Source: Octopus vulgaris
Lineage: Eukaryota
NCBI GenBank assembly: GCA_951406725.2
Contig: OX597817.1
Span: forward strand, 140,058,001-140,122,000
Length of the DNA stretch: 64,000 nucleotides
Reading direction: 5' to 3'
The translations under genes and the position numbers were made by a program. Each line of letters begins with the position of its first letter. Positions within the stretch are counted from its first letter, which is position 1. The notes under the pieces were generated by a model. It saw only the letters and a program-made list of their open reading frames with translations. It was not told the DNA's origin and searched no databases. Positions 18,923-62,195 of the stretch are shown here, in pieces.

Positions 18923-19808
18923 TTTCTTTACTGCCCACAAGGGGCTAAACACAGAGAGGACAAACAAGGACAGACAAACGGATTAAGTCGAATACATCGA
19001 CCCCAATGCGGAACTGGTACTTATTTAATCGACACCGAAAGGATGAAATGCAAAGTCGACCTCGGCGGAATTTGAGCTCAGAACGTAGTGGCAGACGAAA
19101 TACCTATTTCTTTACTACCCACATGGGGCTAAACACATTGAGGACAAACAATGACAGACAAACGGATTAAGTCGATTAGATCGACCCTAGTGCGGAACTG
19201 GTACTTATTTAACCGACCCCGAAAGGATGAAAGGCAAAGTCGACCTCCGCGGAATTTGAACTCAGAACGTAGTGGCAGACGAAATACCTATTTCTTTACT
19301 ACCCACATGGGGCTAAACACATTGAGGACAAACAAGGACAGACAAACGGATTAAGTCGATTACATCGACCCCAATGCGGAACTGGTACTTATTTAACCGA
19401 CCCCGAAAGGATGAAAGGCAAAGTCGACCTCGGCGGAATTTGAGCTCAGAACGTAGTGGCAGACGAAATACCTATTTCTTTACTACCCACATGGGGCTAA
19501 ACACATTGAGGACAAACAAGGACAGACAAACGGATTAAGTCGATTACATCGACCCCAATGCGGAACTGGTACTTATTTAATCGACACCGAAAGGATGAAA
19601 GGCAAAGTCGACCTCCGCGGAATTTGAACTCAGAATGTAGTGGCTGACGAAATACCTATTTCTTTACTACCCACATGGGGCTAAACACATTGAGGACAAA
19701 CAAGGACAGACAAACGGATTAAGTCGATTACATCGACTCCAATGCGGAACTGGTACTTATTTAATCGACACCGAAAGGATGAAAGGCAAAGTGGACCTCG
19801 GCGGAATT
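18923..19808 (-). repeat. Tandem array of headless SINE family B units, period 184 bp (4 full + 1 partial)
   Basis: TTTCTTTACT recurs at 18923, 19107, 19291, 19475, 19659. Confidence 0.95.
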
Positions 19809-19829
19809 ACAAAAACGTAACAGAAATTT

Positions 19830-20040
19830 AGTCACATGTGGGCAAATATGATTAGATAATTGTGTCGCTTTTCTTTTGTTCCAGTGCCTAAAGCTCAAAG
19901 TGTGGTTATTGAACCTGGCCTTGAAATTACCCTCTGTAAGTGTAAACTCTATAACCACTAAAGACACCGTTTCGACGAAGAAATACGTGGGCCTTACAGA
20001 GGGTAATTTCAAGGCCAGGTTCAATAACCACACTTTGGTC
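19830..20040. pseudogene. Penelope-like GIY-YIG endonuclease fragment in inverted arrangement
   Basis: Plus strand KYVGLTEGNFKARFNNH; minus strand LTEGNFKARFNNHTLSFRHWNKRKATQLSNHI; 45-bp perfect inverted repeat. Confidence 0.75.
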
Positions 20041-20241
20041 CCCTAAAGAAAACAGATTGAACATGCTTTCTATGTTATGTCCCAAGAAGAATTTATATAT
20101 TTTTATATATTTTTTATGTATTTTTATATAATTTTTGTGACGAAAAGTGCGAGCGATGTGTGAGTACGCAGGCAAGCAGAGTTATAACACAGTAATTTCC
20201 CTTTATTTAACGGTATTTTTTCATAGCGTTTTCAAATAGCC

Positions 20242-20304
20242 AGATAACCGAAGAGATGGTGTTGTGGATTTCCACTTCGGCATCTGAAACTCAGAGTTTT
20301 ATCT
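20242..20304 (+). ncRNA. Hammerhead-like motif with long helix II (U4C variant)
   Basis: AGATAA-CCGAAGA-GATG..GTGGA/TCCAC..CATC-T-GAAACTCAGAGT-T-TTATCT, ~200 bp 3' of the GIY-YIG fragment. Confidence 0.55.
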
Positions 20305-20461
20305 TGACTACCGAGTAATGTAACATATTATTGTATATATATATATATATATATATATATATATATATATATATACACACACACATATAAGTGTGTGTGT
20401 GTGTGTGCGTGCGTGCGTGCATGCGTGGGTGTTTCTGTATACTTATATGTATATATGTAAA

Positions 20462-20690
20462 GGCGGCGAGCTGGCAGAAACATTAGCGCGCCGGGCGAAA
20501 TGCTTAGCGGTATTTCGTCTGTCGTTACGCTCTGAGTTCAAATTCCGCCGAGGTCGACTTTGCTTTCATCCTTTCGGGGTCGATAAATAAAGTACCAGTT
20601 TCGCACTGGGGTCGATGTAATCGACTTAATCCGTTTGTCTGTCCTTGTTTCTCCCCTCTATGCTTAGCCCCTAGTGGGCAGTAAAGAAAT
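20462..20690 (+). mobile_element. SINE family B, full-length monomer
   Basis: Homology to 4907-5138. Confidence 0.88.
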
Positions 20691-21259
20691 ATATAGGTAT
20701 ATATGTACACACACACACGCACACACAATTGATCCTTGAGAGCTCTTTAATGCTCCATATATTCCGTTAAAACTACTTTAACTACTATAAATATTTAGTC
20801 ATATTTTCTATCTTTCAAAAAAAGCCAGGTCTTAATACAACCGACGACCATATTGCGTCTTGTAATTGAAACAAAATGATTAAATAATCAACCGTGTGTG
20901 GTTCGCCTTCTTCTTTAAGTAGGCTGCAGAAATCCCAGTTGTACATTTATTACTGTTAAGTGTTTTAAGTATAATGAAACAGATCATGGCTCTCAGAAAA
21001 CTGGACTGTTGTGCTCAGCATTTGCGAGTCTCTCAGAGCATTGGGAGTCGGTAGTTTTCTCTTTTTTATCAATCAATTAGAAATAATATTGATTAGGTTA
21101 AACACATGCATGCACACACGCGCACATGCACACGTATATGCGTACATACAAATGTACACGCACGTGCAAACTTGCGCACACATACATGCATACATGTGCA
21201 CACACTTGTACACATATATGCACTCATACATATGTACACTTAAATATATTGAAATATAT

Positions 21260-58821: not shown

Positions 58822-59639
58822 CAAGGTAAGTGTACATTAATTCATATATTTATTCTTTTGTGATTTGCCTTGCATTTACTTCGCATTGTTCTGGCTTTAC
58901 CCCCGATCCTTTATACAATATATATATATATATATATATATATATATATATATATATATATATATATATATATATATATACATATGGTATAATTATAAAC
59001 AGGGCAAATCTCAGGTATTTCTCCTCAGACTGAAAAAACGATGAACGACCTTAATCGATTTTCGAACCTTATTCGATTCTCATGAGAGGCGTCAACATCA
59101 TTTTGACAGTCTCCAGAGAAGCCTAAAAACCCCTCCCCACTGATAGATCTAAATAACAAAGTGAACCCAATGATAAAATCTACCGACGGAGAATGAACAT
59201 ACTACTATCATGTTCTTAAGAATGAAATTAACCCCTCTGTCTATATATCTACCCTCTTTGTAATGTTGGCAAATGAAATAGGGATAAGAATGTGTATTGT
59301 CCGTTTAATTGGTAAATTCTATATGTGGCTGAAGATTGCTCGACATTTTAAAACTGATGTAATACTTACAGTGTTTAATAAAATGAAGTAGCATGAAACA
59401 ATTGTACTACTCTGCCTTGGATATCCTTGTTGCTTATTTTGATTATAATCACCCAATTTGGTTTATAGGGATAATACCATACAAAATTCTGGTGCCTTTA
59501 ACTTACGTACCATATTCCTCTGAATCTAAATATATATATATGTATATATATATATATATATATATATATATATATATATACAATATAAACATATAAATTA
59601 ATATAAATGGGTGTGTATGTGTATCTATGTGTATGTGCC

Positions 59640-59840
59640 TTTGTGTCTGTGTTTATCCCACCACCACCTGATAACCTCTGTTGGTGTGTTTACATCTCCG
59701 TAACCTAGCGGTTCGGCAAAAAACCGATAGAATAAGTAGCACACTTTAAGAAGTCCTGACGTCGATTTATTTGACTAAAACCTTCGAAGACGGTGCTCCA
59801 GCATGACCGCAGTCAAATGACAGAAGCAAGTAAAAGATAT
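59640..59840 (+). mobile_element. SINE family C, 3' half
   Basis: Homology to 31170-31370. Confidence 0.8.
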
Positions 59841-60080
59841 AAGGCAAAAGATAATATTATATGGACAATAGGAATTAATTGTGCGATCTGGATTATACTG
59901 ATGCGAAGGCGTTAATCCTGCGGCACAGGAGACTTCCAAAAGTATGCGAAGAAGCAGACGTGGGAACTTCTTCAAAGTAAGTGAAAAATAAATGGAGGAA
60001 TGGAAGAACCAAGGAATTACGCTGTGACCAGTTTCTCGGGTTTAGCCGAGGAAGAAGACATCTGACATAAGAAAACGGTG

Positions 60081-60447
60081 GTGGAGGCGCAATGGCCCAG
60101 TGGTTAGGGCAGCAGACTCGCGGTCGGAGGATCACGGTTTCGATTCCCAGACCGGGCGTTGTGTGTGTTTATTGAGCGAAAACACCTAAAGCTCCACGAG
60201 GCTCCGGCAGGGGTAGTGGCGACCCCTGTTGTACTCTTTCGCCCCAACTTTCTCTCCCTCTTTCTTCCTGTTTCTTGTCCCCGACTTCCTACGCAACCGC
60301 TGAGCCTGGATGCGCATTTCATCCATCCGTCGATGCTCTCGGTGTCGGGGGTTGACCTGCTTTTTCTTCTGTGGGTCTTACGAATAGCAAAGGACTACGT
60401 TTTGGACTCCTCCCATCTTGCGAGCTCTGGGACGAAGACCGTTCGCT
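60081..60447 (+). mobile_element. tRNA-derived SINE, family A, tail type 3
   Basis: First ~190 bp match the reverse complement of 3640-3834; different 3' part; followed by CAA/CAG repeats. Confidence 0.85.
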
Positions 60448-61119
60448 CAACAGCAACAGCAGCAGCAGCAGCAGCAGCAGCAGCAGCAGCAACAGTAACA
60501 GTAGTAGTAGCAGTAGTTGTAATGACAGTAGTAGTAGTAGTAGCAGTAGTAGTAGCAGTAGTAGCAGCAGCAGCAGTAGTAGTAGTAGTAGTAGTAGTAG
60601 TAGTAGTAGTAGTAGTAGTAGTAGTAGCAGAAGCAGTAGTAGTAGTAGCAGCAGCAGCAGCAGCAGTAGAAGTAGTAGTAGTATTCGATTTTCAAATTGT
60701 GAATCAGATTTAAAACCGTTCAACAATTGCAATTGTTTCTTTTATCTTTTTGCGACTTTTATTTCTTCATTCATTCATTTAAGCACCCCACCCCTCCCCA
60801 ATTTCTTGTCACACCCTCCTCACACCTCTCCACTCACCTCTCCTCACCCTCACCCTCTGCTGTCCTTAATGAGGAAAAAGGAAAATGAGACCATCATATG
60901 AAACATCTTTGCGTATGTGTGTGTGTGTGTATAGCTGTAAATGTGTATGGGAATAATTGTAAATGTACGTGCGCATGTGTATGTATAGCTGTAAATGTGT
61001 ATGTGAGTAATTGTAAATGTATGTGTGTATGTGTATGTATGCGTAGTGGTAGATATGTTTGTGTGTGGGACGATGGAAACGCATTGCATGTAACGAAAGC
61101 AAGAGGTAGGAGGAATATT

Positions 61120-61480
61120 AATATTATTATTGTTATTATTGTTATTATTATTATTATTATTATTATTATTATTATTATTATTATTATTATTATTATTATT
61201 ATTATTATTGTTATTATCATCATCATCATCATTATTATTATTATTATTATTATTGTTATTATTATTATTATTATTAATATTATTATTATTACTATTATTA
61301 TTATTATTATTATTCTATTATTATTATTATTATATTATTATTATTATTATATTATTATTATTATTATTATTATCATTATTATATTAGTATCATTATTATA
61401 TTATTATTATTATTATTATTATTATTATTATTATTATTATTATTATTATTATTATTATGATTAGTAGTAGTAGTAGTAGT
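61120..61480. repeat. (ATT)n compound microsatellite
   Basis: Direct reading. Confidence 0.95.
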
Positions 61481-61809
61481 AGAGATGATGGTGGTGGTCT
61501 AAACAGAAGTGAAATAAAAACACGATCAACAGCAGCAGCAGCAGCAGCAGCAGCAGCAACAACGACAACAACAACAACAACAACCAGTCCTGAGATAGAA
61601 TGAAGTAATTTCCAATCGCAAATAATGAAGGAAAATTGAAACAAATATCACAGTTTAAAAGATTACATCTGGCAGACATTTTGGATGTCTTTGAATAACT
61701 CTTTATTGGTCTGTTTGCTTGTTGTTGTTGCTGATGTTGGTGACGTTTGTCGTTATTCTGGATCGTAATCTTGCTGTGATGTAAACAACAACAATGTCCA
61801 CCCCAATAT

Positions 61810-62195
61810 TTTACTGGTATTTATCGATCCCTAAGTGGGTGAAAGGCAAAGTCGACCTCGGCAGAATTTGAACTCAGGACGTAAAAACCCAGAAGAAATA
61901 CCTATTTCTTTACTACCCACAAGGGGCTAAACACAGAGAGGACAAACAAGGACAGGCAAACGGATGAAGTCGATTATATCGACCCCAGTGCGTAACTGGT
62001 ACTTAATTTATCGACCCCGAAAGGATGAAAGGCAAAGTCAACCTCGGCGGAATTTGAACTCAGAACGTAACGGCAGACGAACTACGGCTACGCATTTCGC
62101 CCGGCGTGCTAACGTTTCTGCCAGCCCGTCGCCTTCCCAGAAGAAATACCGCTAAGCATTTTGTTCGACACGCTATTGCGCCTGGCAGCTCGCGA
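61810..62195 (-). mobile_element. Young SINE family B copy (61903-62135) nested in an older family B copy, 15-bp TSD
   Basis: CCCAGAAGAAATACC at 61888-61902 and 62136-62150; old body to the left, old head to the right. Confidence 0.88.

Follow-up and report, generated by a model that had tools for sequence, protein, structure and literature searches.

The window analyzed here is a stretch of 64,000 nucleotides (nt) of the Octopus vulgaris genome (GenBank assembly GCA_951406725.2, contig OX597817.1, positions 140,058,001 to 140,122,000 of the forward strand), and all coordinates below count from its first base. It consists of animal DNA that is rich in microsatellites and carries several relics of long interspersed nuclear elements (LINEs), with RVT_1 domains in three open reading frames (ORFs). 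Scattered through it is a repeat of about 232 bp with 17 matches (six full length, six headless, five fragmentary and diverged), which we read as a transfer RNA (tRNA)-type short interspersed nuclear element (SINE), being short, non-coding and dispersed. Of the seven SINE loci examined, six are bounded by target-site duplications (TSDs) of 13–20 bp, the exception being a tandem array. Three of the loci share a joint between the tail of one copy and position 50 of another: a nested insertion, a dimer and that array (Table 1). An earlier interpretation (hereinafter the sequence-only reading) had taken them as stages by which a self-targeting, self-concatenating SINE turns into a satellite, a proposal that the present analysis supports in part.

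When matched to the A- and B-box patterns of RNA polymerase III (Pol III) promoters, five of the six full copies show an A box at SINE position 13, while the strict B-box pattern matches none of them, and a B-box-like GTTCAAATTCC is seen by eye in the alignment. ARAGORN detects no tRNA and Rfam likewise gives no tRNA match. The 3′ end is fixed as AAAGAAATA, without poly(A) or a repeat tail. The heads come in two types, a G-head with GGTATTT at position 50 and a C-head, the latter present in 4/6 full copies of the window. Position 50 (GGYATTTC) has the A box on one side and the B-box-like motif on the other, and opens the 3′ arm of a predicted head hairpin; in the monomer fold the UAUUUC of the head is paired within this 13-bp hairpin. 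The folds of the whole monomer and of the dimer are no stabler than those of shuffled sequences (z of -1.29 and 0.32, respectively).

Table 1. SINE-derived structures and their target-site duplications (TSDs) in the window
Feature	Coordinates	Strand	Basis or control
Tandem of headless SINE units with a period of 184: one 5′-truncated unit (from about position 82), three middle, one terminal	18922..19808	-	tandem-repeat analysis
Dimer: full SINE (21676-21443) + headless SINE (21442-21259), tail joined to GGCATTTC	21259..21676	-	halves 164/182 identical
Dimer TSD, 3′ copy, 17-bp core 21242-21258	21239..21259	-	flank comparison
Dimer TSD, 5′ copy, 17-bp core 21677-21693, target begins TATATTT	21674..21694	-	flank comparison
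Full SINE inside the head site of an older relative	61903..62135	-	sequence comparison
15-bp TSD of the nested copy, 3′ copy, begins GGTATTTC	61888..61902	-	identical to 5′ copy
15-bp TSD of the nested copy, 5′ copy	62136..62150	-	identical to 3′ copy
Head of the older host element	62151..62193	-	sequence comparison
Remains of the older host's body; a T5 run directly follows the TSD	61818..61887	-	sequence comparison
Monomer, 16-bp TSD (15/16) beginning TATATTT, 2 extra 5′ bases	4905..5138	+	control 5/2000
Monomer, G-head, 16-bp TSD (15/16) beginning TATATGT/TATAGGT	20460..20691	+	control 3/2000
Monomer, C-head, 20-bp TSD (19/20), 30 extra 5′ bases	36217..36450	+	control 0/2000
Monomer, G-head, 13-bp TSD within a (TATG)n tract	40018..40247	+	control 25/2000, weaker

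The nested locus directly captures an insertion of the SINE into a member of its own family. Its TSD is perfect over 15 bp (random-flank control 2/2000), bearing out the earlier claim of a full copy set into an older relative. The host is diverged, its head being 62% identical to the majority of the six full copies and its body traceable only to about position 130. Under uniform placement, the chance that one nested event falls on the very position used by the junctions of the array and the dimer is about 1/450 (a uniform share of 0.0022).

In the dimer, a full SINE is followed by a headless one inside a single TSD, which is perfect over 17 bp, or 21 bp when the bases shared with the ends of the element are counted (control 0/2000). 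No host head stands in front of it, and therefore it was not formed by nesting at this locus and arrived as a unit, just as the sequence-only reading had held. Although the TSD around them is perfect, its halves (~90% identical) differ at 18/182 sites, and a C-type head in the full half stands beside a junction letter of G; the two features fit an origin from two different source copies. A sense-strand run of four Ts (T4) is absent from five of the six full copies and from the headless half of the dimer, while being present in its full half. That Pol III might run on past the end of an inserted copy and transcribe the headless body behind it, as the earlier interpretation envisaged, is thus plausible, though not at the nested locus itself, as discussed below. 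In the fold prediction, the tail and the junction pair as a small hairpin only once they have been joined.

The 184-bp array comprises 4.8 copies with 95% matches and four identical junctions of AAAGAAATA to GGTATTTC, so that the recurrence of the junction in it stands as claimed. Its units share a mean identity of 95.6% among themselves as against 89.3% to the other copies, which in turn show 92.0% among each other. Three alleles are common to all five units while being absent from the seven other copies in the window, and two more are shared by units 1–4. Further, alignment columns 92 and 104 alternate with a period of two, and toward its 3′ end the last unit again carries the common alleles. 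That five independent draws should all carry those three alleles is unlikely; from the pattern of alleles, the array is an amplified single junction-spanning unit with later exchange rather than a stack of independent insertions. The earlier idea that iterated insertion builds arrays is not supported by this comparison, the units being copies of one unit and the array, which sets in only at about position 82, lacking both the head and the TSD which that idea predicts: the best match between its flanks is 6/7 (control 632/2000), and no TSD was found there. The array may have expanded in place and then lost its head, or may be a 5′-truncated retrocopy of a multimer formed elsewhere.

Comparison of the insertion targets helps explain why position 50 should recur. 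The sequence-only reading had noted TATATTT at two other insertions; this is borne out at 4887 and 21693, but the three further TSD-bounded monomers (20460, 36217 and 40018) have other targets, with the five non-self TSDs starting with TATATTT, TATATGT, TATATTT, TGTGAGT and TGTATGT. The motif N-R-T-A-T-K-T, which was derived from these five and the nested site, fits four of the five as well as the nested site and occurs at 0.5% of the positions in the window. With a held-out matrix built from the five non-self sites over 7–8 nt, the head site ranks 3–9 of about 450 in four monomers and 2 of about 290 in the host, and the matrix weight it receives is 2–12% as opposed to 0.2% for uniform placement. 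Hence, ordinary target preference makes position 50 a hotspot, though not clearly the best site. The claim of self-targeting accordingly holds insofar as a TSD-marked insertion at the head site exists, but was overstated: most insertions of a site-specific retroelement fall in its specific target, whereas here 5/6 of the TSD-bounded insertions have non-SINE targets. Because the head site resembles the ordinary target motif of these non-self insertions, self-targeting is largely accounted for. Nevertheless, the dominance of position 50 also needs later amplification of dimers or arrays, or some extra specificity. Among the monomers, the 30 extra 5′ bases of the copy at 36217 (36167-36216 region) partly re-copy its own TSD, which suggests a slip in second-strand joining.

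We also followed the junction in the public sequencing runs X2, X3 and X13 (organism labels B, C and A, respectively) using contigs aligned to the monomer at 36217..36450, with all counts being those of contigs rather than loci and the figures for joints referring to the 15 joints listed per run (984 others lie beyond them, and some joints are uncounted). The SINE is a high-copy element, with 511,764, 223,647 and 90,972 aligned contigs in X2, X3 and X13, respectively. The tail-to-position-50 joint is the best supported in each run (61, 32 and 27 contigs, in the same order) and together with its near neighbors accounts for 140/208, 71/108 and 45/55 of the tail-origin contigs, as compared to 17, 6 and 0 contigs for full head-to-tail joints. 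Likewise, loose ends before position 50 that carry the SINE-tail consensus number 1510, 704 and 535, while those at the true 5′ end number 3071, 2062 and 227. X2 additionally shows tail joints to 36282 (31 contigs) and 36288 (14 contigs). The junction is therefore widespread across the three runs and their three organism labels. Its letters are G, T, GA and GG, a variety that would fit more than one host type; G dominates, with a depth of 3303 of 5639 in X2, and no C-type junction is among the 15 joints listed, though C looks to be the commonest letter at that head position. This excess of G-type junctions fits either a motif preference or descent from G-type founders.

A self-insertion should also leave a 5′ junction, running from 36280 to 36222 (the head through about position 64 followed by a new 5′ end), and one contig each in X2 and X13 shows it. 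The depth of this head-head joint is 850 in X2, where most listed contigs are at about 50, and 343 in X13, indicating that the head-plus-full structure has itself been amplified; it is perhaps transcribed from the A box of the host. A rarer tail-to-head joint (36449 to 36233) lies near positions 14–20, where the tail and the head share GAAA/GAA. The raw-read run X21 was uninformative, with 15 of 12.9 million reads aligned and one with the junction. Neither the junction nor the tail had matches in the viral contigs, metagenomes and prokaryote genomes scanned. A first protein-translation search for other SINE loci gave no matches, while later ones recovered 103 proteins, mostly with old diverged copies. 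By eye, we noted tail joints near 50–57 in P0042 and near 14–20 in P0009, P0030, P0063 and P0078, all of them too weak to count, and saw no head-head 5′ junction among these translated proteins.

Taken together, these observations lead us to a model in which nested insertion at a hotspot gives rise both to a read-through dimer RNA and to a 184-bp tandem that expands by duplication, a course of events we rate at slightly above even. Under this model, the SINE would be moved by a LINE partner through target-primed reverse transcription, as its 13–20-bp TSDs suggest, with a machinery that, judging from the six sites, favors TA-rich targets of the form N-R-T-A-T-K-T just after the 3′ end of the element. 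G-type heads carry one such target at position 50, and insertion there would leave the host head, a full copy and the headless host body, the configuration found with its TSD at the nested locus. The promoter of the inserted copy could then read through a T4-free headless body, with the resulting dimer RNA being retrotransposed as a unit to yield the product seen in the window. At the same time, positions 50–232 would constitute a tandem of 184 bp that might grow through unequal exchange or slippage, either there or in a master later copied with 5′ truncation.

Several observations weigh against this model. A single nested event is supported by a TSD, and the site of this event cannot have served as a dimer master, since the T5 run of the host right after the junction would stop Pol III read-through. 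The target motif rests on five sites, and with 2–4 nt of upstream context the rank of the head site falls to 7–33. Two alleles (columns 102 and 150) are common to both halves of the dimer and unseen in other copies of the window, which also fits copying from sister templates. Two of the three array-wide alleles are frequent in the family, making up about 18% and 23% of the depth in X2, and hence mark a subfamily, not the locus. Contig counts cannot separate many origins from a few amplified masters. Finally, the tail of the SINE shows no significant match to the nine LINE 3′ regions within the window that might have pointed to a partner.

A rival explanation is guidance by RNA, wherein dimer or array RNAs ending shortly inside the following unit, after GGUAUUU, would anneal to the bottom strand of a different SINE head once it is nicked, prime there and re-create the junction, in a loop that feeds itself forward. 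This would account for an element with no poly(A) or repeat tail, 5/6 of whose targets nonetheless read N-R-T-A-T-K-T, and for the dominance of G and the absence of C-type junctions from the joints listed despite common C heads. L1 ORF2p is reported to accept primers of 5–10 nt (PMC10830420), and TA followed by at least three Ts is described as a Pol III terminator of mammalian SINEs (PMC8466645). Conversely, TATTT is present in every full head and, if an efficient terminator, would stop full-length transcripts; the full TATTTC is present in only 1/5 non-self targets; and the GGUAUUU-extended RNA ends are hypothetical, with contigs being unable to show ends. We regard such guidance as improbable, and hold equally improbable the bolder reading in which base pairing would steer the SINE back to its own head, with each self-insertion yielding a new dimer master and a 184-bp satellite seed in a process still active in Octopus. 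Rather than an ongoing cycle, one or a few ancient events might have been amplified as dimer masters and arrays, with the nested insertion in the window being an occasional repeat. The dominance of a single junction allele, the membership of the array in a recognizable subfamily and the amplified 5′ self-junction all speak for such founders. Set against these are the nested locus with its own TSD in a diverged host, and the T, GA and GG variants together with the additional tail joints in X2, which suggest several host types; we deem descent from founders alone unlikely.

The precise placement of the junction at the boundary between the loop and the 3′ arm of the 13-bp hairpin would fit a reverse transcriptase that stalled there and then either jumped onto a second SINE RNA at its 3′ end or copied a 184-nt circle, producing dimers and arrays in one insertion. 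The precise 3′ end, ragged 5′ end and similar units of the array, as well as the two rare alleles common to the halves of the dimer, agree with this, and such jumping is described in vitro for L1 ORF2p (PMC10830420). Yet the dimer halves differ at many sites inside a perfect TSD, a C-type head in the full half accompanies a G at the junction, and the nested locus forms the joint on DNA without a jump. Retrozyme-like repeats are defined by a self-cleaving ribozyme in each unit and a circular RNA monomer in vivo; among the 38 weak Rfam matches (up to an E-value of 5) in the region 18800–21800 there is no ribozyme family. Fold-back on the same molecule, proposed by the sequence-only reading alongside the circle, is also hard to reconcile with target-primed reverse transcription, in which the 3′ end would be copied first, and the UAUUUC it relies on is held in the hairpin. 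The circle and fold-back are thus weak alternatives, and the explanation as a whole appears quite unlikely, though template jumping between different RNAs is possible, yet not needed. Least probable by far is a local duplication of positions 50–232 inside a monomer at the level of DNA, in which RNA would play no part beyond the initial insertion. The two alleles shared by the dimer halves accord with it, and arrays with internal duplications of a SINE in one TSD have been described in a bivalve (PMC11481361), but one exact breakpoint across loci and runs is not expected of it, the G of the junction is not found in the dimer's own C-type head and the breakpoint is without microhomology.

Self-insertion as such has a precedent in Zepp, though our literature search did not return it. 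That search found no description of the octopus tail-to-50 junction; Repbase/Dfam and the main octopus repeat papers lay outside its scope, making a prior description possible. McGurk and Barbash (2018, PMC5932611) attribute dimers of transposable elements chiefly to insertion-site preference, and the double-insertion tandems they describe in Drosophila are alike in that site preference produces dimers that unequal exchange can enlarge, among them nested insertions and junctions of a tail with an internal position. There, however, it is a site in genomic target DNA that is used again, and the extent of 5′ truncation varies, whereas the octopus site is a fixed position in the element and one octopus dimer appears to have moved again through RNA. 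The squamate SINE satellites of Vassetzky et al. (2023, PMC10702118), such as sSat3Ati2 with its 179-nt unit made of the head end, the body and a LINE-derived region, resemble the array in their headless sub-SINE units and higher similarity within a locus. The octopus array unit is a SINE sub-region more alike within its locus than across the family, as in a SINE-derived satellite (a class further marked by long arrays and subtelomeric placement), but with three middle units the array falls below that study's cut-off of four middle monomers. The squamate work invokes unequal recombination and same-locus insertion in general terms, with no true dimeric Squam SINEs and no TSD-marked self-insertion setting the boundary of the unit; it also cites Alu as a dimer that transposes.

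The TSD-(SINE)n-TSD arrays of the bivalve Scapharca broughtonii (PMC11481361) are likewise molluscan tRNA SINE multimers in one TSD with one shared head truncation; the tail, however, is missing from their first and middle units as well, whereas it is complete in all units of the octopus. The mammalian multimers B2-B2, B1-B2 and Dip of rodents and bats (PMC8466645) parallel the octopus case in that a SINE carrying its own preferred target gives rise to self-insertion dimers, but are made of full-length units joined at the tail, while the octopus SINE is entered within its head, at a point flanked by the promoter boxes, which generates headless units. That source leaves undecided whether dimers arise by insertion or from dimeric templates. 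Thus, dimers resulting from target preference as satellite seeds, headless SINE satellites and SINE arrays are all known already; what differs here is a fixed self-insertion site in the promoter region caught with its TSD, a dimer moved as a unit and a junction dominant in three runs, amounting to a refinement at the level of mechanism and not a new class of element. It bears on the question raised by Vassetzky et al. of why SINE satellites start at recurring sub-regions, since here the boundary of the unit is set by an insertion site with a TSD. A dimer inside a single TSD also makes the origin of SINE dimers, by insertion or by moving as dimers, a question that is countable in Octopus assemblies. 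Such a hotspot may also distort repeat annotation, and RNA-guided homing, if true, would mean that RNA drives the passage from SINE to satellite in a way that reinforces itself.

Beyond the window, translations of the SINE match spurious stretches of Octopus bimaculoides gene models, placing the family in Octopus. Four of these protein models (P0001–P0004) hold translated antisense SINE and are probably annotation errors or cases of exonization. In the O. vulgaris assembly the share of SINEs is 11.6% (PMC13282606). As for named families, the octopus is said to possess tRNA-type SINEs, reportedly those of Ohshima and Okada in 1994 under the names OK and OR2. A core of 24–52 bp (mostly positions 101–128/134) is common to all 121 metagenome loci fetched, with both sides differing; as these loci were collected by searching with that core itself, they are silent on the junction. 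They represent an abundant, otherwise unrelated SINE-like metagenome repeat (L001–L121) sharing just this core with the octopus SINE, and four of them (L017, L027, L003 and L035) have two cores each. Conserved-domain SINE superfamilies (Meta, CORE, Deu and V) are recognized by a central domain that recurs across phyla and agrees with a published consensus; no text matching the core was found in the MetaSINE supplement (PMC4824008), one file of which lay outside the search.

The window further harbors an apparently intact LINE of the CR1/L2 type at 8639-12850 (+). Its 949-aa ORF (9933-12782) combines an endonuclease with RVT_1, the ORFs upstream of this one contain a stretch rich in Cys/His and a tract rich in Gln, and its tail is a short (ATT)n run. 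Another LINE at 50480-54392 (-) couples RVT_1 to a C-terminal KPDIV motif, which we take to be that of a restriction-like endonuclease, and has relatives at 23874-24756 (+), 26149-26490 (+) and 55914-56246 (-). Both copies of this LINE whose 3′ ends were read terminate in (TAA)n tracts, presumably as in Dong/R4-type elements. A second short tandem at 48170-48392, with 3.5 copies of a 61-bp unit at 77%, lies just downstream of the end of an RTE-like ORF and is possibly a further tandem of element origin.

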